This document shows positions 3,097 to 39,815 of a stretch of 64,000 nt of DNA, one piece after another. The translations under genes were made by a program, and so were the position numbers. The stretch lies in assembly GCA_017630405.1 (NCBI GenBank), contig JAGBVH010000024.1, forward strand, positions 31,638 to 95,637, written 5' to 3'. Source of the stretch: Alphaproteobacteria bacterium. Its GTDB lineage: Bacteria > Pseudomonadota > Alphaproteobacteria > Rs-D84. Under the pieces are notes generated by a model. The model saw nothing but the letters and a program-made list of their open reading frames with translations, was not told the DNA's origin and made no database searches. Every line of letters begins with the position of its first letter. Within the stretch, counting starts at the first letter, position 1.

Positions 3097-3121
3097 GAAA
3101 AGACCGCCGTTTGGCGGTTTT

Positions 3122-6504: not shown

Positions 6505-6550
6505 ATTTTTCTCCTTTATATGATATCATAGTAAAAAAAGAGTGATAGAT

Positions 6551-10000: not shown

Positions 10001-10155
10001 GTCTTATTAGTGGTGTTTTTTCGTGCAGAAGATATATTTTGGGACGAGGTACGACGAACAGCGGCGCGCGCCGAGTCCGCACCATCATCAGCCACCGCCC
10101 CCTGAAACACAAGCGGTGCAAGCAATACAGCCAAAAGTAGTCTAATTCCCTTCAT
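7072..10155 (-). CDS. Large secreted protein: signal peptide, Thr/Ser/Arg-rich low-complexity (mucin-like) N-terminal region, coiled-coil middle, cysteine-rich C-terminal half
   Basis: 1027 aa. Signal peptide MKGIRLLLAVLLAPLVFQGAVA. About 170 aa of T/S/R/A/N-rich low complexity, then long helical segments. The C-terminal ~450 aa contains more than 40 Cys in CxxC/CC clusters. No recognisable enzymatic motif. Confidence 0.6.
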   Translation of the reverse strand: MKGIRLLLAVLLAPLVFQGAVADDGADSARAAVRRTSSQNISSARKNTTNKTSNSRASGTSKSTNSGERGTTTGPRGDTTVKNTGRTALNENRTVSARTTSNVMPRATSAKPAATTVQPRSTKPATRTPTVARTAATTRLPATNTASRSRAANIARNTTDTNLRDQIMSRDFSKCRTVYYDCMDEFCANKDAQLKRCACSVRVNEFDSTKKQLAKVEDKLLEFNQRLLTVNLDKEDAAAINTATEGETAFDTKDQSESKKMLDSIAKKLNTSFSDSNFNQDLSAISLSLNMDAAFDNIDSLAGASTTTKSGTALYSAALPVCREMAMEVCSAEDLAVAESGYQMAIEQDCNTVAKSYQTQTDQAREQVLESSALLDMSRLDIHQKRNSDDILTCKSKMIDMLTDTTVCGDNLSKCLDTTGRYIDPSTGEAFLTVNLVDLGKLIIRPSDETAWSKVPGNEKFVSYLNTKKKFLEPAMEKCQDIADTVWANFIDDALAQIKLAQDKKLEEVRQSCTTLTTQCLADTAESIEDFDARALSTFGVLADKTVNEMCSDVRNACTALLESAPDADTDWSTGMTGIATNKTYDTILQTCTEVGRSCIIQACKSISGNFGLCENIDTSINRKSIINRTACWNEVVQCIRDAGTTSLANIREEYPLAKTTIGDKEYFSFDYNKLYGGNKSWIDIIHNGQNTDCINFKENGDQLTNIPSKNCIYNICASECSSDNTEECYICRFAERIWGNCENAPQTVLASDEHNMIKIPHTGDTDTLLAWFAKNTGTADMPDSCRDTTCGVGFINYCTQQVNCNQQGNCYQQSICSCKPSNGFDSAGQYCESGHINISSNITNCCDGSKDQSGNCCVTSITPSGQFMWSNYPTQLTDYKYGPLCGPAGSAIPYAAAGIATTTQFMICIGDTVQPTGETDTEAFPNGTTIECDGDWLLVQQDTATSKTKYLATTHENMYLFYRTNKDDTYYYRVTNEPNPNPVFKKCGAEDTAYENIINNYQVTFSDPCISGNATVISDTEESENP

Positions 10156-16919: not shown

Positions 16920-16949
16920 AAAAACGCCCCAAGTGGGGCGAATTTTTTT
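16917..16949. terminator. Bidirectional terminator between the envC-like (+) and Fic/Doc-like (-) genes
   Basis: AAAAAACGCCCC aagt GGGGCG aaTTTTTTT. Confidence 0.65.
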
Positions 16950-17661
16950 AGATTGAGTGGTAATTTAATTTTTCTATGAATAAATCTTGTGTTCTGGACA
17001 TGCATTTGTACATATAATTATAATATGATTTTTTGTCACCACGCATGCCAAGGCGCAGGGCGTTCATATAATCTTGGTTGTCTGAAATCGCATTAAATGC
17101 GATTGGACGATAGCCACGATTGATTAAGAACCAATTCATCAACATACGCGCTGTGCGTTTGTTAAAATCTGTGAAAGGCTGCAGCATGATAATGTCATAA
17201 TGCACATCAAATGCGCGTTGCAGTATGCTGGCGTTGCCGCTGTTAAGGCGATATAAGATATCATCTAGCTTTTGGCGAACAACTTCTTGGCTTGCAGGTG
17301 CTTCGATAATTGTTTGTAGGTTGCATACGCTTTTTATGCGGATTTCCCCCGGTATAACATCTGTTTCTTGGGCCAGACTGCGATGAATATCAAATACTTC
17401 CCTGATGGTAAAGTTAGCGATATTTGTTCTTGATACAATCATATCCCATGTTTGTCCAATATTGTGAATGCTTTCGCTGCTTGTTTCATGACGAATATGC
17501 GCATCGTGACATTGGTTTAATACAAGTGTTTCTTTGATAAAGGCGCTTTTAATCCATGCGATATCATCAAGGTGTTTAGCCTTGCTGTGAAGTAATTGTG
17601 TAATAGTTTCGCGTTTTTCTTCTATTGCGCGTTTGATATCATATACTTGTTTTTTAGTCAT
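16948..17661 (-). CDS. Fic/Doc-family protein with non-canonical active-site motif
   Basis: The segment LQPFTDFNKRTARMLMNW (nt 17146..17181) aligns with the Fic HPFx(D/E)GNGR and Doc HxFx(D/N)(A/G)NKR motifs. Here His is replaced by Gln and Gly-Asn-Gly by Phe-Asn-Lys. Confidence 0.55.
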   Translation of the reverse strand: MTKKQVYDIKRAIEEKRETITQLLHSKAKHLDDIAWIKSAFIKETLVLNQCHDAHIRHETSSESIHNIGQTWDMIVSRTNIANFTIREVFDIHRSLAQETDVIPGEIRIKSVCNLQTIIEAPASQEVVRQKLDDILYRLNSGNASILQRAFDVHYDIIMLQPFTDFNKRTARMLMNWFLINRGYRPIAFNAISDNQDYMNALRLGMRGDKKSYYNYMYKCMSRTQDLFIEKLNYHSI

Positions 17662-24118: not shown

Positions 24119-24547
24119 ATGAAGAGAATTGTTTTGTTTTTATTGGTGGTGTTATCCGCCTGTACTTTCCAGACCAAACATCGTGGTTATGTTTTCCCTG
24201 TGGATGTTGAGACCAAGGTCGCGAATGTTAAAACAACTGAACAGTTAATTGATATTGTTGGCGTGCCCCAGGTCAAGACTGTGTATGGCGATAATGTCTG
24301 GATTTATTATGGTGCGGATGAAAATTATCGTGGACCACTGGCACCGACATTTACAAATGAAACCGTTTTGCTGGCGTGGGTGCGTGGCAATCGTGTGGTT
24401 CGGACCGCTGTTTTACATGACGCGGATTTGCCGGACGTTGTTGTGGCTGATGGCGAAACGGAAATTCCAGCAGCGATTGAGCTAAATGCACTGGAAGAAT
24501 TGTTTAATAATATAGGCAGATTTAGTCCGGCAGGATTGGGACAATAA
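24119..24547 (+). CDS. bamE: Outer-membrane protein assembly factor BamE (SmpA/OmlA lipoprotein)
   Basis: Lipobox LLVVLSAC. RGYVF...TTEQLIDIVGVPQVKTVYGDNVWIYYG pattern matches the SmpA/OmlA fold. Size and GC are typical of core genes. Confidence 0.6.
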   Translation: MKRIVLFLLVVLSACTFQTKHRGYVFPVDVETKVANVKTTEQLIDIVGVPQVKTVYGDNVWIYYGADENYRGPLAPTFTNETVLLAWVRGNRVVRTAVLHDADLPDVVVADGETEIPAAIELNALEELFNNIGRFSPAGLGQ

Positions 24548-24575
24548 AAACACCCCATGGCGGGGTGTTTTTTTG
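24545..24575 (+). terminator. Rho-independent terminator after bamE
   Basis: AAAAACACCCC atgg CGGGGTGTTTTTTTG. It has the same ACACCCCG/CGGGGTGT stem family as the terminators at 27079 and 28320. Confidence 0.7.
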
Positions 24576-24628
24576 CTTGTGCTGGTTATGTGTTTTTTTC
24601 TATCATATTAATATTAATAGGGAAGGAC

Positions 24629-25417
24629 GTGGGAAAAATAACCAGATTTTTGCGGTTTTTAACGGTTTTTGCGATGCTGCCTTTGGGCATGGATGCGTTT
24701 GCTGTGGGTTATGTGTGTGAATCGGTACGCGTTTATACATCCTGTATGGAAGGTTACTATTTATCTGATTGTGGTGGGACTGAAACGGATTGGGATGGTC
24801 GAACATTGGGCGAAGCGGAATTTGTGGCAGGTAACTACTGTGCATCATGTCCAGAAGGATATGACTGTGAAGGTGGTATGAAGTGTCCTTATAATCCAAA
24901 TTCTGTTGTTGAGGGTGGATTTGTTTGCGAAGAAGCATATTTCACATGTGAGGCAGGATATTATTTGTCCGATTGTGGTTCGAATAGTGCGAATTGGTCG
25001 GGCCAGGAACTGACACAAACGGATGTGACAGCGGGTAATTCGTGTGCCATTTGTCCTGTGGGGTATGACTGTGCGGGTGGTATGAAATGTCCGCTTAGAG
25101 TAACAATAAAATGTGAGGCGGGTCAGTATTTGCCTGCAAATTCGGAAGAATGTAAGATATGTTCGATGGGGTCTTATTGTCCTGGTGGTGATTTGGCGCC
25201 TGGTGATAAGGACGCGGGAATTGTTCCTTGTGGTGATGGGACATATGCAGATGAAGAGGGATTGGCGGCATGTAAAAGTTGTGAACCTTTCCATGGCGCA
25301 TCAATAAAGTCTGATGGGGAACGTGACAGTCGTTTGAATTGTTATGTGCCAGCGGACGAACAAGTGACTGATGAAACAGGCAGTTTCACGTATGTGATGG
25401 ATTGTTTTTATGAATAA
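24629..25417 (+). CDS. Secreted cysteine-rich repeat protein, paralog 1 of a tandem family
   Basis: The ATG at 24557 of the track ORF lies inside the bamE terminator hairpin. GTG 24629, preceded by GGAAGGAC, gives a signal peptide (KITRFLRFLTVFAMLPLGMDAFA) that matches paralog 4. Two ~47-aa YYLSDCG...AGNSC.xCPxGYDCEGGMKCP repeats. C-terminal module CYVPADEQVTDETGSFTYVMDCFYE is shared with paralogs 2-4. Confidence 0.65.
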   Translation: MGKITRFLRFLTVFAMLPLGMDAFAVGYVCESVRVYTSCMEGYYLSDCGGTETDWDGRTLGEAEFVAGNYCASCPEGYDCEGGMKCPYNPNSVVEGGFVCEEAYFTCEAGYYLSDCGSNSANWSGQELTQTDVTAGNSCAICPVGYDCAGGMKCPLRVTIKCEAGQYLPANSEECKICSMGSYCPGGDLAPGDKDAGIVPCGDGTYADEEGLAACKSCEPFHGASIKSDGERDSRLNCYVPADEQVTDETGSFTYVMDCFYE

Positions 25418-25436
25418 AAATCATAAGAGTAAACCA

Positions 25437-25513
25437 TCAGGAAGTTTTTTTGCTTGCCTTGCTTGTGGAAAAATTTCTAGAATTTATTTGTAAGGAATAA
25501 AAAGGAGAAAAAA
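25437..25513 (+). promoter_or_regulatory. Conserved promoter/5'UTR cassette of the Cys-rich family (copy 1)
   Basis: TTGCTTGTGGAAAAATTTCTAGAATTTATTTGTAAGGAATAAAAAGGAG is near-identical to 27113..27189. It contains a TAGAAT -10-like element and an AGGAG Shine-Dalgarno. Confidence 0.5.
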
Positions 25514-27061
25514 GTGTCAAAAAGTTCACGTTTTTATGTGGCTTCTTTGGCGGTATTGCTGTCATATAACGCATATGGTGCGGGGTATGTTTGCGATTCG
25601 CTGATGCAGTATAATAGCTGTAAGGAAGGCTTGTATATGGTGTATGGTCAGACAAACAAATATGACCCTGTGCCATCTACTACTAATGATTGTAGACAAT
25701 GTCCAACGAATGCGGCATACTGCGCAGGTGGTGTAGAAGCGCCTTTGTATGCGGTTACATTGGATCCAAATGGCGGTACTGCGGGCGCTATGAATACATT
25801 TTATGTTGCGCAGAGTAAGGCCGATACAAACACCGTGACATACTGTATGGCGGATGCGGAATCTTTGGATACATGTGCAACAAATACTTCGAATCAGTTG
25901 CCACAGGCTGCGATGCCAACTTATGACAGATATCATAGTTTTGTGGGTTTCTTTACCGAGGCAGAAGGTGGCACAATGTTGTCGAATAGTTCGCTTTTGC
26001 TGGGTTATCCCCTATCGGGTGGTTTGACAGGTACAGCGCCTGCGACATTGTATGCTCAGTGGGAGCAGATTCTTTGTTATCCTGGTGAATATATGACGGA
26101 TGATGGGTGTAAGACTTGTCCGGTTACGGCTATGGCTGGCCCAGCATACTGTGAAGGTGATCTGTACAACCCACTGTACACAGTTACCTTAAAGCCAGCA
26201 GGTGGTACGGTTCAGGCCGATCATTTCTGGATTGGTCAAAGCAACAGTGATCAAACATATTACTGCGATGCAAGTGATGATACCAAAAAGTCCGAGTGCG
26301 TGACGAATGCTGGAGGTTCGGTTGCGTTGACGTTCCCATTGGACAGCAAGTATATCCCAACGCGTGATAAACATGCGTTCCTTGGTTGGTCATTGACACC
26401 ACAAATGGATGGCCAGACTGCTAATTATGTAATTGATGCGAATGGTGCTTTGATTGGTACGATTCCATCAGACACCAGTCCACTCTTGTATGCATGGTGG
26501 GAAACAACATCTTGCGAACCAGGTCAGTATCTGGATGAAAGCAAGACATGTCAGTCATGTCCAGAAAACTATAAGGACAGCTCGGGTGCGGGTACAAACG
26601 GCATTGGCGAATGTTACCTGATTACAAAGCCAGGTTATATGGTTGGCTTCGAGGGTCAGGGCGAAATGGATTGCCAAGGCGGATTCTGGTGCCCAGGTAG
26701 TGTCACAGTTTACTATGACAAGACAGGTGGTATGAATCAGTGTCCAGGTAATTATCGTTCCGGTGGTAATAACTTGTCCGCAGAAGCAGAGTGTGCTTGG
26801 AACGTTCCAGGTGGATCTTATGTCAAGAACGCTAAGGACGTTGCGGCAACTGCTTGTGAGTCCGGTGAATGGAAGGCGGCACATACAGTTAAGTATGGCG
26901 AAACCTCCGCGCCACAGACTTGTGCGGGCTTGGATGGCCAGAAGGGTGAATCTGCAGAGCCACGTGACGCAGTAACAACCTGCTTCATCCCAGCGGAACA
27001 GTCGCTGACAAATACCAAGGGTGACTACGTCTTTACAGAAGATTGTAAGTGGACGGAATAA
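25514..27061 (+). CDS. Secreted cysteine-rich repeat protein, paralog 2
   Basis: GTG start, with signal peptide MSKSSRFYVASLAVLLSYNAYGAGYVCDS. Multiple CxxCP...YC / CxxCPENYKDSSG modules. Conserved C-terminal module CFIPAEQSLTNTKGDYVFTEDCKWTE. Confidence 0.7.
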   Translation: MSKSSRFYVASLAVLLSYNAYGAGYVCDSLMQYNSCKEGLYMVYGQTNKYDPVPSTTNDCRQCPTNAAYCAGGVEAPLYAVTLDPNGGTAGAMNTFYVAQSKADTNTVTYCMADAESLDTCATNTSNQLPQAAMPTYDRYHSFVGFFTEAEGGTMLSNSSLLLGYPLSGGLTGTAPATLYAQWEQILCYPGEYMTDDGCKTCPVTAMAGPAYCEGDLYNPLYTVTLKPAGGTVQADHFWIGQSNSDQTYYCDASDDTKKSECVTNAGGSVALTFPLDSKYIPTRDKHAFLGWSLTPQMDGQTANYVIDANGALIGTIPSDTSPLLYAWWETTSCEPGQYLDESKTCQSCPENYKDSSGAGTNGIGECYLITKPGYMVGFEGQGEMDCQGGFWCPGSVTVYYDKTGGMNQCPGNYRSGGNNLSAEAECAWNVPGGSYVKNAKDVAATACESGEWKAAHTVKYGETSAPQTCAGLDGQKGESAEPRDAVTTCFIPAEQSLTNTKGDYVFTEDCKWTE

Positions 27062-27078
27062 TCCTGAGGTTAGCACTA

Positions 27079-27112
27079 AAAAGACACCCCGTTCCCGGGG
27101 TGTTTTTTTTTG
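27079..27112 (+). terminator. Rho-independent terminator after paralog 2
   Basis: AAAAAGACACCCCG ttc CCGGGGTGTTTTTTTTT. Confidence 0.7.
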
Positions 27113-27189
27113 AAGTTCTGCTTTTTTCTCTTGCGTCGATTGTGGAAATTTTTCTAGAATTTGTCTGTAAGGAATAAAAGGAGAAGAAA
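27113..27189 (+). promoter_or_regulatory. Conserved promoter/5'UTR cassette of the Cys-rich family (copy 2)
   Basis: TTGTGGAAATTTTTCTAGAATTTGTCTGTAAGGAATAAAAGGAG aligns with 25437..25513. Confidence 0.5.
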
Positions 27190-28302
27190 TTGTCAAAATA
27201 TTCACGTTTTTATGTAGGGACTCTGGCGGTATTGCTGTCATACAATGCATATGGTGCAGGGTTCGTCTGCGATTCGATTAAGCAGTATGATAGCTGTGAT
27301 ACAGGATACTATTTGTATGGCACAAATGGACTGGGTTCAGTTAATCCTGGAAATGAGTGTAAGACGTGTCCTGATTTACAGGCATTCTGTCCTGGTGGCG
27401 TCAATGGTCCATTGTATCAGACAAAGTTTGGTGTGCAAAACAACGAAGGTGTTGTATTGCGTGACACTCTTATGATTGGTGAAAAATCAGATGGCAGTTT
27501 GTATTGGTGTGATGCTACATTGGACGATCACATTGCAATAGAAGACTGTGTTGAAGCCGGTGGGAATAGTTTTGAAAGTGGAATCGCATCGGACTTTATA
27601 CCGACGCGTCCGCAGTATGCGTTTAGAGGTTGGGCGAATAGTGATGATCTGAGTACTTTGCTTTTTGACAGTCGTGGTAAGATTGCTAATCAGGAAGAGG
27701 TGTCTAGTAGATTGGGTACTATGCAACTGGTTGCAATTTGGGAAAGAACATCATGTAATGCCAATGAATATCTTGAGAATGCGGCATGTAAGCCTTGCCC
27801 AACAGAATTCCCGAACAGCGATGGATCGGGCGGCATCAATACATGTTATGTAGATGTTCAGCCAGGTAAGTATGTATATGGCTTTGCACAGTCCGGCAAG
27901 GGTCAGGAAGACTGCCCAGCTGGTCATTACTGTGAAGGTGGTATGAGAGCGTACTATAATGATCAAGAGATTGGTGCGACACAGTGTCCAGAGAACTATA
28001 GAAATGGTGGCGCTGGATATACTTCAATCACTCAGTGTGTTGCAACAGTTCAGGGTGGTTATCGTATCGAAACAGAGAACAGTGCACCAGCTGTCTGTGC
28101 AAGTGGCACATGGAGCCTTGAACACTCGGTCACATATGGTCAGACATCCACATGTGAATCCTGTGGTACATTGGATGGTGTTGCAGCCTCGTCTAAGGAA
28201 CCACGTAATTCCAAGACAAGTTGCTATATCGCTCCAAATCAGGGAACTAAGGACGATAGAGGTAACTATACCTTTACACAAGACTGCGTATGGACAGAAT
28301 AA
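27190..28302 (+). CDS. Secreted cysteine-rich repeat protein, paralog 3
   Basis: TTG start, with signal peptide MSKYSRFYVGTLAVLLSYNAYGAGFVCDS. The N-terminus is near-identical to paralog 2. Conserved C-terminal module CYIAPNQGTKDDRGNYTFTQDCVWTE. Confidence 0.7.
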   Translation: MSKYSRFYVGTLAVLLSYNAYGAGFVCDSIKQYDSCDTGYYLYGTNGLGSVNPGNECKTCPDLQAFCPGGVNGPLYQTKFGVQNNEGVVLRDTLMIGEKSDGSLYWCDATLDDHIAIEDCVEAGGNSFESGIASDFIPTRPQYAFRGWANSDDLSTLLFDSRGKIANQEEVSSRLGTMQLVAIWERTSCNANEYLENAACKPCPTEFPNSDGSGGINTCYVDVQPGKYVYGFAQSGKGQEDCPAGHYCEGGMRAYYNDQEIGATQCPENYRNGGAGYTSITQCVATVQGGYRIETENSAPAVCASGTWSLEHSVTYGQTSTCESCGTLDGVAASSKEPRNSKTSCYIAPNQGTKDDRGNYTFTQDCVWTE

Positions 28303-28319
28303 TCTTGTTCGTATTGGTC

Positions 28320-28352
28320 AAAAAAACACCCCGATTGCGGGGTGTTTTTTTG
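28320..28352 (+). terminator. Rho-independent terminator after paralog 3
   Basis: AAAAAAACACCCCG attg CGGGGTGTTTTTTTG. Confidence 0.7.
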
Positions 28353-28432
28353 TGAATTTTTGCTTTTTTGGCTTGCGTCAATTTGGCTAATTTTATACCA
28401 TTAGATATAAAGGGATAAGGAAAGATATTCAT

Positions 28433-31400
28433 ATGTTTAGATTTCTGCGTTTTTTAGCAGTTTTTGTAGCGTTATTTGTTAGTGCAAATGCGTTAGCTGT
28501 TGGTTTTGTTTGCGAATCGGAACGTACTTATACATCGTGTGTAAGCGGGTATTATTTGTCCGATTGTGGCAGTTATTCCGATGGCCGCACATTGACCGAA
28601 TCGGATTTGTCGGCTGGAAATTCGTGCGTTCTATGCCCAGATGGTTATGACTGTGAAGGTGGTATGAAGTGTCCCTATGATCCGAATGCGGATGAAGATG
28701 ATGGTTTTGTCTGTGATGAAGCGTATTTCTCGTGTGAGTCTGGTTATTATCTGTCTGACTGTGGTGATACAGAGTATGCTTGGGATGGGCGCACTTTGAC
28801 CAAAGATGAAGTTACATTTGGCAACTCTTGTGAAGCCTGTCCAGAAGGTTATGATTGTGAAGGTGGTATGACATGTCCAGCAGGTAGTAATAAGCCGATA
28901 ACCAGCTGTCCAGCCGATCAGTTTTTATCTGATTGTAATAATCTTTCTTCTTGGACAGGCCAGACACTGGATAGTAGTAATTTAAGTGCAAATAATAGTT
29001 GTGTGTCTTGTCCCGATGAATATTCTTGTTCTGGTGGTTTGAGTTGTCCTGCTAGAATAACTGGTGAGTCTGGATTTACTTGTGATTATAAAATATTTAC
29101 GGGGTGTGGAGAAGGGCGTTTCTTGTCCGATTGTGGTGCTTCATCTAATTGGATTGGGCAGACATTGGAAAGAGATGAACTTGAAGCTGGTAATAGTTGT
29201 CTTGCTTGTCCAGATGGTTATGACTGTGAAGGTGGGACGACATGTCCGATTAATATGAATCTGGAGTATTTGTTTGAGGTTATAACTACGTCTGGAACGA
29301 CAAGCTTTAAGTTTAATATCAACGCATCTGGTAATTACTGGGTTGATTGGGGTGATGGCAAGGTTGAAATGAGGAAGTCTGTAGAGTCAACAACCTTTGA
29401 CCATACGTATGCTAGCGCTGGTGCTTATACAATTAAGATTGGTGGTGTGTCTGGATCCTATCCATATGCGGAAGATGATACGCCAGCGATGACATTTTAC
29501 AACAAGACCAATGTTGCGGCTTTGGATGGTAGCCTTGGTAAATTGTTCCCTGTATTAAAGGATTCTGGGGTAAATCCATACTTTGGGTATATGTTCTCGG
29601 GCGCGACTAATTTGAAGCAAATTCCATCGACTCTGTTTTTGGGAATTGGTGATACAGATCGTCCAGCTATGTTTGAAGGTATGTTTGCGAATTCTGGTTT
29701 GACTTCGATTCCTGTCGGTCTGTTCAACAGTATAACTCAACCTGCGGATGGATTGTTTAGTGATATGTTCTTGGGAATTAAAGCGTTAACCAGTTTGCCA
29801 GAAGGTTTGTTTGCTCATATTGATGCGGCCGCGGGCGAAGCAGAATATATGTTCAGCTATACATTTAGTGGTACTGGGCTGACAAGTTTGCCGGATTCGC
29901 TGTTTGGTGAGTTGGAAGCATCTGATGGATTGTTCTCTAATACCTTTTCGAATACACCATTGGAGCAGATTCCTGCGGATTTGTTTAGCGGTGTAACAGG
30001 TGTGGCGCCTGCTATGTATCAGGCTACGTTTGATACTGCTGATGTAAGATCTATACCTGTTGGCTTGTTTGATGGCTTGTATGGTCAGGATAGTATACCG
30101 GATACAATGTTTGAGGGCACGTTTAGTGCGTGTACATCTTTGTCTGGTCCTGCGGCGCGATTCTCGGATAATTTGGGTGGCAAGTTCCTGCACGAGGTTT
30201 GGCCGATGTTGGAAGCCGATATGGGTACATATGCCGATACAAATATTGATAATTTGAAGTATATCCCAACATCTTGGGGTGGTGGTGGCCTTGTAAAGTG
30301 TGCGGCTGGTACATATTTGCCAGAAAATGCATATGTTTGCGAAACCTGTCCAGCTGGCTCATATTGCCCAGGTGTTGATGAGTTGTTTATTGATTCTGTT
30401 GAGCAGGGACGGGTATCTTGTCCTGCGGGTTATACAAGCAATGCAACTGGTAATACCAGTGGTGTAGATTGCTTTGGTGGGTACAAGTTCACAATCGAGA
30501 CTCTGCCTATGACTGGTGCGTTTGAATTGTCTCTGGTATCTGTTAAGGGTAATTATTGGATTGATTGGGGTGATGATACACCGGTGGAATATATACCAGT
30601 AACCGATTTTGCCAACAAAACCGTTCCACACACATATGAAGGTTCTGCTGAGGCGCGCACGATTAAGATTGGCGGTTTGACAACGGAGTATAATCAAGAT
30701 ATGGCGGCATGGAGTTCTGGTGTATTCAAAATCAATGGGAATCAGTATGTGTCGAAGGTTTCGGGCAGTTTGGGTGCCATATTCCCAACAATGTCAGACG
30801 GAACACAGCCTGGATTCTTTAATTTGTTTATGAGCTGTCCAAATCTGACTGAAATTCCATCGACATTGTTTGATGGTGTCCATGGTCAGCCACGTGTCCA
30901 GATGTTCTTTAATTCCTTTGCTGGAACAGGTTTGACATCAATCCCAGAAGGCTTGTTTGCTGGATTGGATGGCGCGCCAACCGAAATGTTGTTTGCAAAT
31001 ACTTTTGCGGGCACCAAAACTACATCGATACCGGATGGACTGTTTGATGGGCTGGACACATCGGCACCAGGTGCAGAAAATATGTTTGCGCAGACATTTT
31101 ATAATTGCACGTCTTTGACTGGTCCTGCGGCGAAAATGTCCGCGGCCAATGGTGGTCAGTATCTGCATAAAATCTGGCCGATGAGTGGTGCGACTATGCA
31201 GACTTATACCGGCACAAATATTGATGGGCTGCGTGCTATCCCAGTGTCTTGGGGTGGCGAGGGTGTCTTGGATTGTGTCGCTGGTACATATCAGTCTGCG
31301 GACGAAACAGAGTGTTTGACATGTGCTTTGGGTGCTTTCTGTGTTGGTGGATTAGCACCACAGGAAACATGCGCTGATGGTACTTATGCTGACGAAACTG

Positions 31401-31558
31401 GCTTGGCAGAATGTAAAGCGTGTGATAAGTTGTATGGAGTTGGCGCTTCGTCGTCCTTGCCTCGTACTTCAATAAATAATTGCTATATTCCAAAGGATGT
31501 GGGGTTAAGTGATGGTAAGGGTAATTTCTCATTTATAGAGAATTGCCAGTATCAGTAA
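28433..31558 (+). CDS. Large secreted cysteine-rich protein, paralog 4, with four N-terminal Cys repeats and an internally duplicated beta-sandwich plus BspA-like leucine-rich repeat module
   Basis: 1041 aa. Signal peptide MFRFLRFLAVFVALFVSANALA. Four ~47-aa CPxGYDCEGG repeats (nt ~28520..29248). Two ~300-aa modules (nt ~29261..30292 and ~30485..31267), each with GNYW(V/I)DWGD, followed by ...LTSIP.GLF... repeats and ...YLH.(V/I)WPM...IP.SWGG. Family C-terminal module ...CYIPKDVGLSDGKGNFSFIENCQYQ. Confidence 0.75.
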   Translation: MFRFLRFLAVFVALFVSANALAVGFVCESERTYTSCVSGYYLSDCGSYSDGRTLTESDLSAGNSCVLCPDGYDCEGGMKCPYDPNADEDDGFVCDEAYFSCESGYYLSDCGDTEYAWDGRTLTKDEVTFGNSCEACPEGYDCEGGMTCPAGSNKPITSCPADQFLSDCNNLSSWTGQTLDSSNLSANNSCVSCPDEYSCSGGLSCPARITGESGFTCDYKIFTGCGEGRFLSDCGASSNWIGQTLERDELEAGNSCLACPDGYDCEGGTTCPINMNLEYLFEVITTSGTTSFKFNINASGNYWVDWGDGKVEMRKSVESTTFDHTYASAGAYTIKIGGVSGSYPYAEDDTPAMTFYNKTNVAALDGSLGKLFPVLKDSGVNPYFGYMFSGATNLKQIPSTLFLGIGDTDRPAMFEGMFANSGLTSIPVGLFNSITQPADGLFSDMFLGIKALTSLPEGLFAHIDAAAGEAEYMFSYTFSGTGLTSLPDSLFGELEASDGLFSNTFSNTPLEQIPADLFSGVTGVAPAMYQATFDTADVRSIPVGLFDGLYGQDSIPDTMFEGTFSACTSLSGPAARFSDNLGGKFLHEVWPMLEADMGTYADTNIDNLKYIPTSWGGGGLVKCAAGTYLPENAYVCETCPAGSYCPGVDELFIDSVEQGRVSCPAGYTSNATGNTSGVDCFGGYKFTIETLPMTGAFELSLVSVKGNYWIDWGDDTPVEYIPVTDFANKTVPHTYEGSAEARTIKIGGLTTEYNQDMAAWSSGVFKINGNQYVSKVSGSLGAIFPTMSDGTQPGFFNLFMSCPNLTEIPSTLFDGVHGQPRVQMFFNSFAGTGLTSIPEGLFAGLDGAPTEMLFANTFAGTKTTSIPDGLFDGLDTSAPGAENMFAQTFYNCTSLTGPAAKMSAANGGQYLHKIWPMSGATMQTYTGTNIDGLRAIPVSWGGEGVLDCVAGTYQSADETECLTCALGAFCVGGLAPQETCADGTYADETGLAECKACDKLYGVGASSSLPRTSINNCYIPKDVGLSDGKGNFSFIENCQYQ

Positions 31559-31618
31559 AAAAAATTGCGTTTGTAAAGTGCAGTCAAAAAGTGTAAAATA
31601 AGGTAAAGCGAGAAAAAT

Positions 31619-32152
31619 ATGGTAAAAAAGATTTTGTTTTCGATTCTGGTTTTATTTTGTGCTGTGCCAATGGCAATGGCTGACTTTTCTTGTGGGGCAG
31701 GATATGTTCTGGCTAAACATAAGGATATAGACGGTATTCCTGCGATGGAATGTCAGAAGTTGTGGTGTCGTGACTTGGAAACGGGCAAGGTTATGGGCAA
31801 GGGAAATACCGCAAATACTGGTTATCAGGCAACAAGCGCGCCGGTTCAGGTTTGTGATGCCAAGGATAATTGTATAGAATGTTGGGGGCAGCGCAGATGG
31901 TGTGCTGGTAATGTGCGTGGGGATTGGAATCCTGAATATGGTGCATATACACGCGGTGGTGACAGTGTGACATATAAATCTTATCAAAAGGGTGGCTGTT
32001 TTGCGTGGCGTTTGCAAAAGGCGGACTGCCCAGATGGTCAGGCGGCCGTTTTGCAGGGTGATGAATGGGTTTGTGTGGTGTCGTCGGGCGGTTCCAGTGC
32101 ACAACGCGCACCGGCTATTCGTAGAACTGGCGCGATTCGAGCCACAAAATAG
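31619..32152 (+). CDS. Small secreted cysteine-rich protein
   Basis: Signal peptide MVKKILFSILVLFCAVPMAMA. 14 Cys in 155 mature residues. No separate terminator from paralog 4, so possibly co-transcribed. Terminator hairpin at 32159..32190. Confidence 0.55.
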   Translation: MVKKILFSILVLFCAVPMAMADFSCGAGYVLAKHKDIDGIPAMECQKLWCRDLETGKVMGKGNTANTGYQATSAPVQVCDAKDNCIECWGQRRWCAGNVRGDWNPEYGAYTRGGDSVTYKSYQKGGCFAWRLQKADCPDGQAAVLQGDEWVCVVSSGGSSAQRAPAIRRTGAIRATK

Positions 32153-32272
32153 TGCTTTTAAGGTCCGAGGTTTCGGACCTTTTATTTTTTTTGTCCATTT
32201 ATTTGTTTTTTTGACTTTTTTGTGATATACTGTTCTGGACAGAGAGAATGACAACCGGATAAAGGTAGTCTT

Positions 32273-32833
32273 ATGCCAAGTAAGAAATTAGATTTTAAAG
32301 CAGGACAGTATGTCGTTTACCCAACACAAGGTGTGGGTAAGTTGTTGCGTATAGAAGAGCAAACAATCGCAGGTCAAAAAATTAAATTGATGGTTATTGA
32401 TTTCGAAAGAAATCATATGACTTTGCGTGTGCCATTGGAACGGGCCGAGATTTCAGGATTGCGTCCTTTGACCAGTGCCAAGAAAATGGACGAAGCAATT
32501 GCGTCAGCCAAGGGCAAGGCGGGTGCCAAGCGTATGATTTGGGCGCGTCGTGCCGCGCAGTATGAAGAAAATATTAACTCGGGCGATCCTATGAAGTTGG
32601 CCGAGGTTGTGCGTGATTTACAGCGCCGTACCGCCGCTGATACGATGACATTTTCTGCACGCCAGTTGTATTTGCGTGCGTTAGAGCGTATGGCCCAAGA
32701 GTTTGCAGTTTTACATAAAATTGATTTGGATTCTGCATCTGAAAAAATTGAAGATATTTTGGGGATTCCAAAAGAAATCGATTTGAATGCTGCGGATGTG
32801 GACGAAGAAGAGATAGAGGAAGAAGATTCCTAG
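32273..32833 (+). CDS. CarD/CdnL-family RNA polymerase-binding transcription factor
   Basis: DFKAGQYVVYPTQGVGKLLRIEEQTIAGQKIKLMVIDFERNHMTLRVPLERAE matches the CarD_CdnL_TRCF N-terminal domain. Acidic C-terminal tail. Confidence 0.8.
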   Translation: MPSKKLDFKAGQYVVYPTQGVGKLLRIEEQTIAGQKIKLMVIDFERNHMTLRVPLERAEISGLRPLTSAKKMDEAIASAKGKAGAKRMIWARRAAQYEENINSGDPMKLAEVVRDLQRRTAADTMTFSARQLYLRALERMAQEFAVLHKIDLDSASEKIEDILGIPKEIDLNAADVDEEEIEEEDS

Positions 32834-34399: not shown

Positions 34400-34478
34400 C
34401 TAGTGAATTTCGTCTTGCCTTGATAAAACGAATTGTGCCATAATATAATCACAAATAGGATTGGAAGAAAATAAAAAA

Positions 34479-37400
34479 ATGATGAAAAAGTTAATTTCCT
34501 TGATTTGCTGCTTGTTGCCAATGGGTGCGGTGGCTGGTGTTTCGTATATTTCGCCAAGTGAAACTGGTGGTGCGGTTTCGACTGAACAGGCTGATTGGCC
34601 TGCGGGTTCGAACAATACCGTTGTGGTACAGGAGGCCAGTGGAATTAATGCGCCTGGCGGTTTGTCGTTTCGTGAAATGTATGCGGGGCAGGCGACTGAC
34701 AGTGGCAGTGCGTTGGCTACAGAAGGCGTATTGTATGTGAACCAGTTGTCTGGCGAGGGACCTTTTACGGTTTCTTCTGGTGGTGCTGTATCGCTGAACG
34801 CATTGTTGAGTGTTTTAAATAATAATGAGCTTGCTTTTATTGGTGCTGATAATGGTGCGTATGATTTTACCGTTGGAAATATGGATGTTGCACAGTCGGG
34901 GGCGGTTAATGTGGCGGCAGGTTCTTCTTTGACAGTGAAAAATGCTGATGATTTTGCTGTCTATGGGACTGTTACAAATTCAGGAAATGTCGAGGTTGTT
35001 GCGAATTCCGTTGTTGCCGGTAAATTAGAAGCCGCAGATGGCGATATGGGACTTAGCGCGGCAAATGGTGTGTTTGTTGCTGGTGTTGGTACTGACGCTG
35101 ATGCAAGTGTTACGATTTCGGCAAGTGGCGAAAGTCAGCAAAATATATCTGGTACTGATATTGAGGGCGGAATCATTTCATATGGTACCGTTCAGAATAA
35201 TGGTACGGGCAGCGTAAATCTTAATTCGGCATCTGGTATATATGTTCTTGATGGTGATGCGGATGATGATACAGGGAACCTTGAAAACAATAATGTAGAT
35301 GGTACTTTGACTGTGGCGGGTGCTGATGGTACTGGGGCTGCGGGCGCTTTGATTGTTGATGGAACTATTAACAATTCTGGAAATATGAACGTGAGTGCCG
35401 ATTCGTTGTTGGTCAAAGGCGGTGATAGTGCGACCGGTTCTATTCAAAATACTGGTGATTTAGTTGTCGCTGTGACAAATGAAGCCAATGTTGGTTATGG
35501 TGTTAATTTGTCTGGTATGTCTGCTGATAAAAAGTTTGATTTTACTGCAGGTAGTTTGGCGTTTGGTCAGGATGCGAGCGCAGATATGATTCAGGGGATG
35601 TTTTCAAATGACTTGAATTCATATAATTTGTCTGTTGGCGGTGCGCTGGATTTAAGTCAATCAGATGTTGATATTGTTAACAACTCGGGAAATATGTCTG
35701 TAGGTGCTGGTAATGTCAGTGTTAATAATGTTTCAAATGCGGGACAAGAATTGAAGGTTGTTGCATCTGGTGAGGCTGGCGGTAATGTTGAAGTTGAAGG
35801 ACAAGTTGTAGGTTCGGCTGGTTCTGTGACTAATGTTACGGCAGAAAATGAGTTGAGTGTGGCTGATGCGGTTTCCAATCAAGGAACGATGACATTAAGC
35901 GGTACTACAGTTAAATTAACTTCTGTTTCTAATAGTGGTGCGGATTCTGATTTGACTGTTTCTTCTTCAACTGAAGGTGGGGCTGTTCTGGTTAGTGGTG
36001 AAGTTACAAATGCCGATGGTAATATGTTGGTTCAGGCCGAAGATATTACATTTGGCGCGATGGTGACAAATAATAGTGGTACTATGACAGTAAAGGGTTC
36101 GGATAGTGATAATGGTGCTGTTGCATTCGAGTCTATTGATGTTGCGGGGGGGACAGTTAATATTGATGCACTTGGTGGTGCGGTTTCGTTTGGTGGTAAT
36201 GCGCCATCGCCGGTAGCAGAAGGGGCACAGGCTGATTCTCAGGTTGCGATTAATGTTTCTGGTGGTGTGTTGAATTTTGGAACAAATGTTCGTGATGTTC
36301 AGTCCGCAGAAAATGTAAATATTGATGGCGGATTGTATGCTCGTGAAAATCTGATGACAGAAGCGGGCAGTGTGAATGTTCAATCAACGATGGCTGGTGG
36401 TGCGTCTGCATTTACTTTGGATGCTGGGTCGAATGATGTTGTTTTGGGCAAGGTTGTTGCTGATGGCTCGATTTCCGGCGGTGATATTATAATTGATGAT
36501 GCAACGGTAAAGCGCGGGGTGACTATCTCCGCGGATGGTTTGCATGCGATGGGGGATGTGACTGTTGCGAATTCTGGCAGTATGTTGTCTTTGACAGCGA
36601 ATTCGCTGGATATTGATGGATTGTTGACTGTTGGTGAAGGCAATTCGTTAAATCTTACTGCAGCGCAGGTTTATACCGGTTCGGTTGAATCGCATGGTAA
36701 AATTATGGCAGCAACATCCTTGATTACTGCTGACAATGGCAATGTGTTGTTTGATGGTAATTTATATATGGGTGTGACCGATAGTTATGCTGCTGCTGGT
36801 TTGTTTGCAAATGGTAATACTTTAACCATAACAACTACTGGGACTGATGGTTATGATATCAGTTTTGGTGGTGCACAGATTGCCAATGGTAATACTTTGA
36901 CAGTCAGCGCAAGCGGTGATGTTTCATTTGGTACAGAAATGAATAATGCTGGTGTTGTGACAATGAACGCTGATAATGCTTCGTTTGCGGCTGTCACGAA
37001 TTCAGGAACAACTACAGTGATTGTGACCGAAGATATTACAGCAACTGGCACAATTGATAATGACAAGAATTTGATTATGACAGCGGCTGATTTTAATTTG
37101 GCCAATGTTGATAATAGCGATACTTTGAATATCAATTCATTGGCAGGAACTGTGACGATGGCGGATGTGGATAACACAAGTTCTATGGTTGTTGCTGGTG
37201 CCAAGGCGATTGTAGCTGGCGATATTGAAAATAATGCTGGTGTTATGAATCTTAATGCCACAGAAAGCATCAACGGACAAAGTTTGGCGATTTCTGGTAC
37301 TGGTGCTAAGGCGACATTGAATACGGCAAAGGCTGAGTTTGCAAATGCTGTTAGTGTTGCTGGCGATATGGTCCAGGGCGCAACAAGTGGCGCGTTGAAT

Positions 37401-39815
37401 AATTTGGCAGCAACCTTTAAGGCCGGCTCGTTGGATATCACAAATGGTGGCGATTTGAAGTTTGTTGCGGGTGGTGCAGAATATAATATTGCCCAGAATG
37501 TTAATGTTGCTGGTGATATTATTATGAGCGGTGACGCATTGACGGTTGTTAATGCCGGTGGTATTCTGACAGCAGCAGGCCTTGAAAATAATAATGTTTT
37601 GACCATTGATGCAACTGGCGGCATGAGTTTGGGCAGTGTTGTTAATAATTTTGGTACTTTGACACTGGATTCAAATGATAATTGGACTGCTTTGTCGGAT
37701 TTAACTGTTAATGCGGGCGCGGTGGCTTTGTATGGGGCTGGTATCCGTGGCGCAGAGGCAATCGATACAGATTTTGCATTGACACAAGGTACATCTGGTG
37801 TGCTGGCAAATGGTGTTAATGTTCGTGCCGAGGACTTTGTTATAGAGACTAATAACTTGGTTGTAGGTGAAGTTAATCAGAAATCTGGTTCAATGATAGT
37901 CAAGGCCACGAATGTTGATGTCGGTGGCAGTATTATGGCCCAGGATTTGACATTTGCGGTACCAAATCAGACCAATTGGATGAGTGTAAATGTCGGTGGT
38001 GATGTTTCTGGTGGAGTTGGATTCTTGGGTGTTGGCACAATGGGTGTTGGTGGTAACTATATCTTTGATTCTGGCAGTCAATTAAGCGCTGTTGTTTTAC
38101 CATACGCAGAGGGTGATGGAACGGGTGTTAACAACTATTGGTCAACAATCAGCCTTAACGAAGATGATACTTTGGGACAGATTACCAATGCCGAAGGCGG
38201 TAGTGCCTTGATTAGTATAGAGGGCACATTCAAGGGTGGTTCGGATTATACTGGTGCATCCGTTGTAAATGGTGCCGCTTTGGGTGAATCCCAGATTGGT
38301 ATTACATTAAAGGATGCGGTAAATCAGGGTACTGCAATTTGGTTGTTACATGCCAATGGCGGGGTTGAAAACTTTAGCGATTTGGAATTGTTGCGTAATT
38401 TGGATGTGCGCTATTGCAACGCAGATGGTTCTATTTGCTATGATTATTTGACTTCTTTGGATGATAAGAATTCTTCAGATGAGGATTTGCCAGCATATGT
38501 TTCTGTGCGTGATAATGATTTGGATGGGACTACGGACAGTTTGTATGTTGTGTTTGATCCAAGATTTGGCGGCCCAGTATTGGTTGAAAATATGAAGTTG
38601 CAGCCAATTGTTGCGCGTCAGCCAGATTCTACGGATGGCGAATATGTTTCCGCAGGTGCTTTGGATGCTTTGATTGCGGGGCAGTTGCAGGACAAGAAGT
38701 TCTATAACAAAACACCAATCGAAGTGATTCCATTGGCGTTTGAGGGTTCGGTAATGTCAAATGCAGCAAACGAACTGTATAATCGTATGGAATATTATGT
38801 TGAAACAGCGGATGGTGCACCTTTGGCGAACTTTAGCCATTTGTTCCAAGTGTATGAGGCTGAACAGGTCGCTGGTGTAATGTCCTTGAATGAACATACC
38901 GCGTTCCGTTCGTTTGAAGATCGTATGATGGATGAGTTTATCTGGCATCGCAATCGTAATCTGCGCAAGGCATGGTTGGATGTGGACTATGGTATGTCGT
39001 ATCAGAATATAAGCACCGGTACACATGCTGATGGTCATCGCTTTAGTGTTTCGGGTGGTTTTGACTGGCAGGATTCAGATACTGTTATTCTGGGATTGAC
39101 AGGGCGTGTATCACGTACGTCATCCAAGGCTTCTGATTCTGTAGATTTGAGTTATAGCACAAATGTTTTGGCGGGCCACAGCAGTGTTGAAGTGACCGAT
39201 ACGAATGTTGGATTGGGTGGTTATATGATGAAGACATTGGGTGATAAGACACGTCTTTATGGAAATGCGTTCTTGGATCTGCATATGTTTGATATCAATC
39301 GTGAACAGAACTTTGTGACCCCAATCGATGGTTCTGGGTCTGCGTTCAGTTTGATTTCCGAATGGGGATTGATGCATGATATCTTGAATCAGTATGTTGT
39401 TGGTAATATCTATGCGCGTGCTGGTTATAACTTTGGTTTTGATATAACCGAAGAAGTGACAGGTGGCGATTATATGCAACTTGAATCTGATGGCTATTTC
39501 GTTTTGACACCAGGTTATACTTTGATGGCGCAGAAGCGTATCTATCCATCAGCATGGTTCCAGATTCGTCCATATATGGCTTTGGGCGTTGAATATGATG
39601 TTATTGGTGGTCCAGACAAGGCAAGATATAAATTCGATGCCGCCAAGCATTATACAAACTATGATGTAGCTATTGATCCATTGTGGGCAAATATCGGTGG
39701 TGGTGTGGAATTCTTGTCAGCACATGGATTCCAGTTGGGTGTTGATTACCGTTATCAATACAACTCGGATATTCAGTTGCACAATATCAAGGTTTCTGGT
39801 TCATACAGATTCTGA
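34479..39815 (+). CDS. Type Va autotransporter adhesin with a very large passenger domain
   Basis: Signal peptide MMKKLISLICCLLPMGAVAG. About 1450 aa of Gly/Ser/Asn/Thr/Ala/Val-rich beta-helix-like passenger sequence. A C-terminal ~280-aa beta-barrel translocator ends ...NIKVSGSYRF. The track ORF starts at TTG 34461; ATG 34479 was preferred. Confidence 0.85.
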   Translation: MMKKLISLICCLLPMGAVAGVSYISPSETGGAVSTEQADWPAGSNNTVVVQEASGINAPGGLSFREMYAGQATDSGSALATEGVLYVNQLSGEGPFTVSSGGAVSLNALLSVLNNNELAFIGADNGAYDFTVGNMDVAQSGAVNVAAGSSLTVKNADDFAVYGTVTNSGNVEVVANSVVAGKLEAADGDMGLSAANGVFVAGVGTDADASVTISASGESQQNISGTDIEGGIISYGTVQNNGTGSVNLNSASGIYVLDGDADDDTGNLENNNVDGTLTVAGADGTGAAGALIVDGTINNSGNMNVSADSLLVKGGDSATGSIQNTGDLVVAVTNEANVGYGVNLSGMSADKKFDFTAGSLAFGQDASADMIQGMFSNDLNSYNLSVGGALDLSQSDVDIVNNSGNMSVGAGNVSVNNVSNAGQELKVVASGEAGGNVEVEGQVVGSAGSVTNVTAENELSVADAVSNQGTMTLSGTTVKLTSVSNSGADSDLTVSSSTEGGAVLVSGEVTNADGNMLVQAEDITFGAMVTNNSGTMTVKGSDSDNGAVAFESIDVAGGTVNIDALGGAVSFGGNAPSPVAEGAQADSQVAINVSGGVLNFGTNVRDVQSAENVNIDGGLYARENLMTEAGSVNVQSTMAGGASAFTLDAGSNDVVLGKVVADGSISGGDIIIDDATVKRGVTISADGLHAMGDVTVANSGSMLSLTANSLDIDGLLTVGEGNSLNLTAAQVYTGSVESHGKIMAATSLITADNGNVLFDGNLYMGVTDSYAAAGLFANGNTLTITTTGTDGYDISFGGAQIANGNTLTVSASGDVSFGTEMNNAGVVTMNADNASFAAVTNSGTTTVIVTEDITATGTIDNDKNLIMTAADFNLANVDNSDTLNINSLAGTVTMADVDNTSSMVVAGAKAIVAGDIENNAGVMNLNATESINGQSLAISGTGAKATLNTAKAEFANAVSVAGDMVQGATSGALNNLAATFKAGSLDITNGGDLKFVAGGAEYNIAQNVNVAGDIIMSGDALTVVNAGGILTAAGLENNNVLTIDATGGMSLGSVVNNFGTLTLDSNDNWTALSDLTVNAGAVALYGAGIRGAEAIDTDFALTQGTSGVLANGVNVRAEDFVIETNNLVVGEVNQKSGSMIVKATNVDVGGSIMAQDLTFAVPNQTNWMSVNVGGDVSGGVGFLGVGTMGVGGNYIFDSGSQLSAVVLPYAEGDGTGVNNYWSTISLNEDDTLGQITNAEGGSALISIEGTFKGGSDYTGASVVNGAALGESQIGITLKDAVNQGTAIWLLHANGGVENFSDLELLRNLDVRYCNADGSICYDYLTSLDDKNSSDEDLPAYVSVRDNDLDGTTDSLYVVFDPRFGGPVLVENMKLQPIVARQPDSTDGEYVSAGALDALIAGQLQDKKFYNKTPIEVIPLAFEGSVMSNAANELYNRMEYYVETADGAPLANFSHLFQVYEAEQVAGVMSLNEHTAFRSFEDRMMDEFIWHRNRNLRKAWLDVDYGMSYQNISTGTHADGHRFSVSGGFDWQDSDTVILGLTGRVSRTSSKASDSVDLSYSTNVLAGHSSVEVTDTNVGLGGYMMKTLGDKTRLYGNAFLDLHMFDINREQNFVTPIDGSGSAFSLISEWGLMHDILNQYVVGNIYARAGYNFGFDITEEVTGGDYMQLESDGYFVLTPGYTLMAQKRIYPSAWFQIRPYMALGVEYDVIGGPDKARYKFDAAKHYTNYDVAIDPLWANIGGGVEFLSAHGFQLGVDYRYQYNSDIQLHNIKVSGSYRF

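Follow-up and report, generated by a model that had tools for sequence, protein, structure and literature searches.

A tandem array of modular, cysteine-rich, predicted secreted proteins with Ephrin_rec_like-type repeats in an uncultured gut alphaproteobacterium

The Ephrin_rec_like repeat (PF07699), also met as GCC2_GCC3 in proteins such as Mst1, ELAPOR1 and the Eph receptor, is regarded as having arisen in early eukaryotes, and isolated bacterial cases have been ascribed to horizontal transfer (PMC6993872). Here we analyse five consecutive plus-strand genes (g1 to g5) in a stretch of 64,000 nucleotides from an uncultured alphaproteobacterium of the lineage Rs-D84 (GCA_017630405.1, contig JAGBVH010000024.1, positions 31,638 to 95,637; the whole stretch is called the window below). 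The genes are flanked upstream by a small lipoprotein gene (24119-24547) and downstream by a CarD-family regulator gene (32273-32833). A first-pass annotation, made from the letters of the window, had placed five same-strand open reading frames (ORFs) here, whose positions we confirm, and had taken them for five secreted paralogs with eukaryote-like Cys modules, recently expanded and possibly variably expressed. Our analysis supports four paralogs, g1-g4, and we favour, at a probability of roughly 60%, the reading that these are Sec-exported, disulfide-stabilised, adhesin-like binding proteins located on or outside the surface of a gut bacterium.

Four kinds of described proteins resemble the array. 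Like the Ephrin_rec_like proteins, it has a repeat unit of the form C-x-(A/D)G-x-Y...C-x2-C-x2-G-x-(Y/F)-C; unlike them, its products are bacterial with predicted Sec signal peptides, lack a transmembrane segment, kinase or polyproline region, and combine the repeats with Flg_new-like and leucine-rich repeat (LRR)-like domains and with lineage-specific end modules. With the variant-specific surface proteins (VSPs) of Giardia and the surface antigens of ciliates they share the character of Cys-rich, CxxC-containing secreted proteins in multi-copy families, but there are only four to five paralogs in this genome, their middles consist of different domains, and the C-terminal transmembrane helix and CRGKA tail of a VSP are absent; comparison of the genes alone gave no evidence for mutually exclusive expression as in Giardia. 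Bacterial modular adhesins (Listeria internalins, Tannerella and Treponema BspA, TIGR02167 PARCEL-repeat proteins) likewise join a signal peptide to arrays of binding repeats, a likeness that extends to the LRR-like similarity of g4 and to relatives annotated as InlB B-repeat proteins or matching Flg_new at 372 bits. The array proteins differ from these adhesins in lacking a C-terminal anchor of the LPXTG, GW, lipoprotein or type IX kind, in a Cys content (4-9%) and TNFR-like spacers that are unusual for adhesins, and in scoring below threshold for both TIGR02167 and Flg_new. Finally, as with the ankyrin and LRR eukaryote-like proteins of sponge symbionts, Legionella and Rickettsiales, a eukaryote-typical domain has been expanded in a host-associated lineage with reduced genomes; here, by contrast, it is another domain class, the proteins appear to be exported by Sec rather than being type IV secretion effectors, and some members of the family are giants of up to 4283 amino acids (aa).

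The features of the array, all on the plus strand and in window coordinates, are as follows.

24546..24572, +: terminator of the upstream lipoprotein gene, first of three copies of the ACACCCCnnnnnGGGGTGT-T(n) hairpin (terminator scan, direct repeat D7)
24577..24606, +: g1 promoter-like cassette, TTGTGC, 18 nt, TATCAT (alignment, pattern scan)
24629..25417, +: g1, 262 aa, predicted signal peptide
24704-24892 and 24914-25099, +: the two N-modules of g1
25106-25282, +: Ephrin_rec_like-type Cys repeats of g1
25229-25414, +: C-module of g1
25454..25483, +: g2 promoter-like cassette, TTGCCT, 18 nt, TAGAAT (alignment, pattern scan, direct repeat D8)
25514..27061, +: g2, 515 aa, with predicted signal peptide, two InlB-B/Flg_new-like repeats and Cys repeats
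25580-25753, +: single 6-Cys N-module of g2
26855-27058, +: C-module of g2
27084..27112, +: terminator hairpin and T9 run after g2 (terminator scan, direct repeats D6 and D7)
27131..27160, +: g3 promoter-like cassette, TTGCGT, 18 nt, TAGAAT (alignment, pattern scan, direct repeats)
27190..28302, +: g3, 370 aa, with predicted signal peptide, one InlB-B-like repeat and Cys repeats
27256-27414, +: N-module of g3
28096-28299, +: C-module of g3
28319..28352, +: terminator after g3 with a 15-bp stem (terminator scan, direct repeats)
28373..28401, +: g4 promoter-like cassette, TTGCGT, 17 nt, TACCAT (alignment, pattern scan, direct repeat D6)
28433..31558, +: g4, 1041 aa, predicted signal peptide
28499-29248, +: the four N-modules of g4
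29261-30292 and 30479-31267, +: two beta-sandwich plus ~24-residue-repeat cassettes of g4, each followed by Cys repeats
31370-31555, +: C-module of g4
31619..32152, +: g5, 177 aa, small predicted secreted protein with 10 Cys in the mature part
32160..32181, +: terminator after g5, end of the array (terminator scan)

BLASTP pairs g1 with g4 (5e-68) and g2 with g3 (2e-64), while between the two pairs the matches (1e-7 to 1e-12) run through the protein ends. These ends are the N- and C-terminal modules that had been proposed for four of the proteins; they hold for g1-g4 under MAFFT alignment and BLASTP, in agreement with the direct repeats in the DNA, and are 24-60% identical among the paralogs. 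As g5 has no similarity to g1-g4 detectable by BLASTP, the array is on this comparison one of four paralogs, not five, followed by an unrelated small, probably secreted Cys protein. A search of PDB sequences with g5 gave no match. The N-module spans ~60 aa directly after the signal peptide (GY.C....Y.SC..GYYLSDCG...W.G..L....GN.C..CP.GY.C.GG..CP), with seven Cys in g1/g4-type copies and six in g2/g3 copies, and there are two copies in g1, four in g4 and a single one in each of g2 and g3. The C-module (62-68 aa; C..G.Y.....G...C..C....G......PR....CYIP.......G.Y.F...C.Y.E) ends the proteins of this set with DCFYE, CKWTE, CVWTE and NCQYQ, and its first part is an Ephrin_rec_like repeat above the Pfam threshold in the relative P0053.

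Between these modules the proteins are not, as first described, hypervariable versions of one sequence; they differ by domain content, with extra N-modules, InlB-B-like repeats, or cassettes of a beta-sandwich and ~24-residue repeats. The repeats of g2 and g3 show the motifs LY.V.L.P.GG ... PTR..Y.F.GW ... LYA.W; Flg_new (PF09479) scores 14.1 bits in g2, below the Pfam threshold of 27 bits, and residues 138-186 of g3 give repeated BLASTP alignments to the Flg_new repeats of the relative P0066 (best E 0.004), so that we would call them Flg_new-like at a level short of Pfam membership. In g4, each cassette opens with a motif (YW.DWGDG...HTY...G.YTIKIGG) for which the AlphaFold2 model predicts a beta-sandwich, continues with ~24-residue repeats (F..TF...T.LTSIP.GLF.G) and is followed by Cys repeats (C.AG.Y.....C..C..G.YCPG). 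For the first cassette, the model reaches a predicted local distance difference test score (pLDDT) of 90 and a predicted template modelling score (pTM) of 0.90, although a Foldseek search of the PDB with this model gave no solved structure below E 1e-3. Against PDB sequences, phmmer with g4 finds the designed LRR 4psj (E 2.6e-6) and variable lymphocyte receptors (E 0.02). The BspA-type/PARCEL 26-residue repeat TIGR02167 reaches 15.6 bits versus an NCBIfam cut-off of 30 bits, the NCBIfam scan giving no useful match, and the PKD domain profiles PF00801 and PF18911 reach 15.2 and 15.5 bits, below their thresholds of 23.5 and 27 bits. Cassettes of the g4 type recur six or more times in the 4283-aa relative.

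The gene calls themselves needed one correction. The mechanical ORF of g1 (286 aa) starts at ATG 24557, within the terminator hairpin of the upstream gene, and relatives begin with MGKI.RFLRFL; the start is therefore most likely GTG 24629, giving 262 aa, which fits a ribosome-binding site and the homologs. The public annotation of g1 (MBO5834125.1, 247 aa) begins within the signal peptide. All five products (MBO5834125-MBO5834129 at NCBI, from a metagenome-assembled genome (MAG) labelled 'Alphaproteobacteria bacterium') are annotated as hypothetical. In a heuristic scan each starts with a K/R-containing region, followed by a hydrophobic core and an A-x-A-type site, in line with the signal peptides first proposed for all five; the same scan found in none of them a transmembrane-like window after residue 30, a lipobox or a C-terminal LPXTG. 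The sequence LPMTG in g4 (aa 691-695) was considered as a sortase signal and rejected, being internal and without a transmembrane tail. That the genes are pseudogenes or gene-call artefacts was ruled out, as the ORFs are intact in three strains with a ratio of non-synonymous to synonymous substitution rates (dN/dS) below 1.

The Cys motifs quoted in the first-pass annotation are present, and their proposed eukaryotic likeness stands in part. Ephrin_rec_like matches exceed the Pfam threshold in the relatives P0053 (gene A of the L006 locus described below; 25.8 bits) and P0054 (23.2 bits), while in g2-g4 Pfam gives no Ephrin_rec_like match at E <= 1, and a furin-like Cys-rich region, the other family that had been named, has no match at E <= 1 in any of g1-g5. 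DUF7631 (PF24634) scores 28.1 bits in g4 versus a cut-off of 27, covering only profile positions 3-21 of 50, and reaches 57 bits in the relative P0051. When a family profile built from 63 segments was compared with PDB sequences, one match was significant, the Chlamydomonas filament protein Mst1, which has Ephrin_rec_like domains (E 7.6e-14, 55.3 bits, the sum of six weak, compositionally biased repeat matches with a best single independent E-value of 5e-4); ELAPOR1 came next at E 0.04, and g1 alone found nothing. The AlphaFold2 model of g1 has a mean pLDDT of 70, with the first N-module above 90 and the Cys repeats at 80-90, and in a Foldseek search of the PDB it ranks the same proteins first without significance, none being below E 1e-3. 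The resemblance to the Ephrin_rec_like/TNFR type is real at the level of the profile and probable for the fold class, whereas the window proteins fall short of strict Pfam membership.

Among PDB structures this fold class is confined to eukaryotes and their viruses, which raises the possibility that g1-g4 are mimics acquired from a eukaryote, acting as secreted decoys or ligands for TNF/TNFR- or Eph/ephrin-type receptors of a host or protist. Poxvirus homologues of TNFR are analogous mimics. Such an origin would also agree with the presence of probable eukaryotic proteins (P0049, P0089) among the matches and with the treatment of bacterial Ephrin_rec_like cases as horizontal transfers (PMC6993872). 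We nevertheless consider it very improbable: the similarity concerns generic spacer repeats, not ligand-binding sites, these repeats are embedded with typically bacterial Flg_new and LRR-like domains, and neither the N-module nor the C-terminal modules C1-C4 defined below have a eukaryotic counterpart among the matches. The G+C content of the array (0.42-0.46) is also the same as in the rest of the window, so that there is no sign of recent transfer.

The family came into view only with an exhaustive search. A word-indexed protein search returned only g3 itself for g3 and three relatives for g1, and the C-module profile had no match in such a search, which says little. Exhaustive phmmer with g1 against 1.84 billion cluster representatives (clusters at 50% identity) gave 368 proteins at E <= 1e-3, 113 of them at E <= 1e-10. 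Those with a source name are all from MAGs of Alphaproteobacteria, and one is annotated as 'InlB B-repeat-containing protein'. We examined 151 sequences, the best 150 of the 368 matches and P0047. The N-module is present in 67 of the 151, nearly always directly after the signal peptide, many members are 1000-4283 aa long, and some relatives have binding domains above the Pfam threshold (Flg_new at 372 bits in P0066, F5/8 type C at 31.6 bits in P0063). One relative, P0050 (at least 1681 aa), is a fifth paralog elsewhere in the same MAG. The C-termini of the examined sequences include at least four conserved, mutually exclusive types, all of which occur together with the N-module and all of which except C3 also occur without it.

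C1: YLRS.K.TTPSLNV...YGNM...YSV.DDSM, terminal in 33 proteins
C2: GC.IASCMYQGELY.L..NEC..IC...DETGT..W...KKCE..C..GY..W, 15 proteins
C3: GCWC...SPA.G..WVYGTTN.SC..KCGY.CANNMKGT, 4 proteins
C4: the C-module of this array, 7 proteins

A further set of Cys-repeat proteins with neither an N-module nor C1-C4 (P0055, P0060, P0061, P0075-P0077, P0092, P0107, P0117) has another C-terminal motif in common, ..QCW......Y..C(V/M)FG.., which suggests a possible fifth type of end module. For the N-module and C1-C4 there is no model in Pfam or NCBIfam, and a few keyword searches of the literature found nothing on them.

A scan for the N-module pattern in one genome per species (n=185,579) confirmed 55 loci, all in uncultured gut Alphaproteobacteria, and among these species genomes the family is confined to such bacteria, including Ca. 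Enterousia. This agrees with the suggestion that the proteins are not widespread housekeeping proteins of free-living bacteria. The loci come, among others, from Ca. Enterousia spp., from 'uncultured Rickettsiales UMGS1304' and from samples of roe-deer caecum, wild mouse and the Hadza gut, and a genome usually has several of them, with at least four in one circular genome of 958,618 bp. A metagenome scan gave 19 loci, none with a habitat label. Viral contigs yielded no relatives, and an origin from phage tail fibres was dropped for that reason. The repeats had been called rare in bacteria, which is true in general and not of this one lineage, where they are very abundant; to our knowledge, no other expansion in bacteria of a Cys-rich repeat considered to be of eukaryotic origin comes close to this one in size. 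The domain classes, and surface repeat proteins as a kind, were already known; what is new or undescribed here is the system of N-module and C1-C4 end modules, the scale on which a eukaryote-type Cys repeat has expanded in one bacterial lineage, and its concentration in genomes of ~1 Mb. Ca. Enterousia belongs to the GTDB order Rs-D84; its members have genomes mostly under 1 Mb, lack the tricarboxylic acid cycle and respiration and retain little biosynthesis, and a partner-dependent lifestyle has been proposed for them (PMC12306168). The present organism, for which an endosymbiont lineage had been entertained, is accordingly best described as a gut-associated, small-genome alphaproteobacterium that is probably partner-dependent, and not as a demonstrated endosymbiont.

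Each of g1-g4 is preceded by the same ~60-nt element, which consists of a T-run, a sigma70-like promoter (TTG(C/T)N(T/C), 17-18 nt, TA..AT) and an AAGGAG-like ribosome-binding site, and which g5 lacks; the pattern used in the scan was derived from these same four sites, and its hits are consensus matches and not transcription data. The g2 and g3 cassettes are 84% identical over 58 nt (direct repeat D8), and the blocks of terminator and promoter that precede g3 and g4 share 81% identity over 75 nt (direct repeat D6). L006, a more distant relative, also has this element ahead of its array genes, an argument that it is functional, and g1-g4 are probably each transcribed from their own promoter. 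A hairpin of the form ACACCCC-loop-GGGGTGT with a T-run stands before g1, after g2 and after g3 (direct repeat D7); the g1-g2 spacer has only a degenerate remnant of it, the terminator scan found none in the 60-nt g4-g5 spacer, and the terminator of g5 differs from the repeated hairpin. Rfam had no match within the array. A promoter and terminator had been assigned to every gene; the promoters apply to g1-g4 only, and the terminators only to the upstream gene, g2, g3 and g5.

Two further assemblies of the same species-level lineage have the locus. In L004 (GCA_045637345.1) all five genes are present in the same order and, apart from g2 (517 versus 515 aa), with equal lengths; L005 (an ENA contig) covers g1-g3, also in this order, and breaks off within the gene that follows. 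The array evolves faster than its flanks, with dN/dS of 0.27-0.58 for g1-g4 versus 0-0.13 for PFOR, the lipoprotein, CarD and enolase, the substitution numbers being small, and selection on g1-g4 is purifying but relaxed. In g2 the synonymous rate (dS) is 0.14-0.15, compared with 0.02-0.06 in flanking genes (window versus L004 and L005), and this increase suggests allelic recombination at g2, where the two-codon length difference also lies. At the corresponding position in L006, after the same lipoprotein gene, there is a different array: a protein of 826 aa that combines two N-modules with one beta-sandwich/repeat cassette, an additional domain and a C-module, then a 373-aa g3-like protein, then a protein of at least 578 aa. 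Its first and third genes (2700-3150 and 6650-7150) are identical in the promoter and first ~120 codons and differ in the remainder, a sign of partial duplication or of gene conversion in the very recent past. In another relative, L001, a protein with a C-module and no N-module adjoins one with an N-module. From these comparisons we conclude that between species the locus turns over by duplication, gene conversion and domain shuffling, and that within the species sampled it is stable. In L001 there is also, about 2 kb upstream of the two family genes, a gene for a 192-aa protein with Mtd_N (6418-6996), the domain that forms the N-terminal part of the target protein in diversity-generating retroelements.

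These data bear on the idea that g1-g4 are recently expanded surface antigens, switched on and off by phase or antigenic variation. Tandem paralogs that each have a promoter, their faster evolution relative to the flanks, the raised dS of g2 with its suggestion of recombination, and the duplicated or converted gene pair of L006 would all suit such a family. Within the species, however, three strains agree in the number, order and lengths of the genes, and the array spacers are 94-100% identical with indels only of single bases in homopolymer runs, differences that could be assembly noise. The array has no invertible elements or long simple repeats, and the paralogs are old, given that their shared modules are only 24-60% identical. 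We find in this neither evidence for a recent expansion nor any sign of variable expression, and regard this explanation as unlikely.

The conserved ends and variable middles allow a different and less probable interpretation, in which g1-g4 are structural subunits of a surface fibre or coat, their end modules mediating head-to-tail or lateral assembly and their middles exposed. The same logic is seen in flagellin and in the mastigoneme filament of Mst1, which is of the same repeat type and is the best profile and fold match. Several paralogs with the same end modules at one locus, and odd Cys counts in mature g1, g2 and g4 that would permit intermolecular disulfides, could be accommodated in it as well. 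It is made doubtful by the absence of assembly or usher genes nearby, by the fact that the end modules are the same kind of Cys repeat as the spacers, and by relatives of up to 4283 aa whose many binding-type domains make them resemble adhesins more than subunits. Two other known classes do not fit: type V autotransporters, as g1-g5 have no Pfam Autotransporter match and the C-terminal 62-68 aa are a Cys module and not a beta-barrel, and polymorphic toxins, as the C-terminal modules are Cys-rich, 50-70 aa long and without a toxin-family match, and it is the middle that varies and not the tip.

We therefore return to the reading of g1-g4 as exported adhesin-like binding proteins. A conserved signal peptide would direct them to Sec, leaving one to four N-modules at the mature N-terminus. 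Binding would fall to the variable middle, through InlB-B-like repeats in g2 and g3 and through cassettes of a beta-sandwich with LRR-like repeats in g4 (discoidin domains in relatives), with the Ephrin_rec_like/TNFR-type repeats acting as rigid spacers between them. The C-terminal module consists of one such Cys repeat with a short beta-hairpin tail, and the conserved ends might serve as handles for export, anchoring or assembly. The array probably arose by tandem duplication of a unit comprising terminator, promoter, ribosome-binding site and the region coding for signal peptide and N-module, followed by domain shuffling in the middles. Ligand binding and a surface or extracellular location would be expected of such proteins, and a role in host interaction is plausible.

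Several points weigh against this interpretation. Ephrin_rec_like scores only 15.2 bits in g1 versus a gathering threshold of 23.1, and Pfam matches of the window proteins are otherwise sub-threshold too, with the exception of the partial DUF7631 in g4; the Mst1 score is, as noted, a sum of weak and biased matches, and the g1 model is poor at residues 96-171. We infer the expression, localisation and binding of g1-g4 from their sequences. No secretion-system gene that could carry the proteins across the outer membrane is linked to the array, and folded disulfide-rich proteins are ill-suited to type V secretion.

The neighbourhood of the array consists of housekeeping genes (PFOR, enolase, PolA, UvrA, TyrRS, transketolase), and some other features of the window were noted in passing. 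GC skew is positive in all 2-kb bins (0.01 to 0.32), the large genes are mostly on the plus strand, and the whole window appears to be the leading strand of one replichore. A second large orphan, a 1027-aa ORF (7072-10155, minus strand), matches no Pfam family at E <= 1e-3. A gene for a Fic-domain protein (16948-17661, minus strand), flanked by genes for a peptidase M23 and a CtpB-like S41 protease, is assigned by Pfam calls that had been precomputed for the syntenic loci L004 and L005. Just downstream of enolase, a 1784-aa ORF (34461-39815, plus strand), conserved in L004, encodes a signal peptide, a repetitive body rich in Gly, Ser, Asn and Val, and a C-terminus (...SGSYRF) like that of an outer-membrane beta-barrel; it has no Pfam match at E <= 1e-3 and may be a divergent autotransporter-type surface protein. 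A 174-aa ORF (49349-49873, plus strand) matches only the SRP54 M domain (SRP_SPB), without an N or GTPase domain, and may be a split, truncated or unusual ffh. A 373-aa protein (57405-58526, minus strand) matches the Autotransporter beta-domain PF03797 at 36.4 bits, which indicates that the organism is a diderm with type V secretion.

Ca. Enterousia and its kin are thought to be partner-dependent, and how they attach is a question to which this array offers a compact entry point, as it represents a large family with several copies per genome, whose exported members, of up to 4283 aa, take up much coding capacity. That one N-terminal module is paired with four alternative C-terminal ones suggests undescribed signals for sorting or assembly. 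We would tentatively go one step further and raise the possibility that Rs-D84/Enterousia-like bacteria have a surface apparatus that is particular to their lineage and made from eukaryote-type Ephrin_rec_like repeats, in which giant and small members would be exported by a pathway so far undescribed, anchored or assembled through the signal-peptide/N-module region and one of at least four interchangeable C-terminal modules, and would form fibres or a coat tethering the bacterium to its partner, be it a protist, another microbe or an epithelium. The array proteins are candidates for finding out which partner these uncultured bacteria have and how they attach to it.

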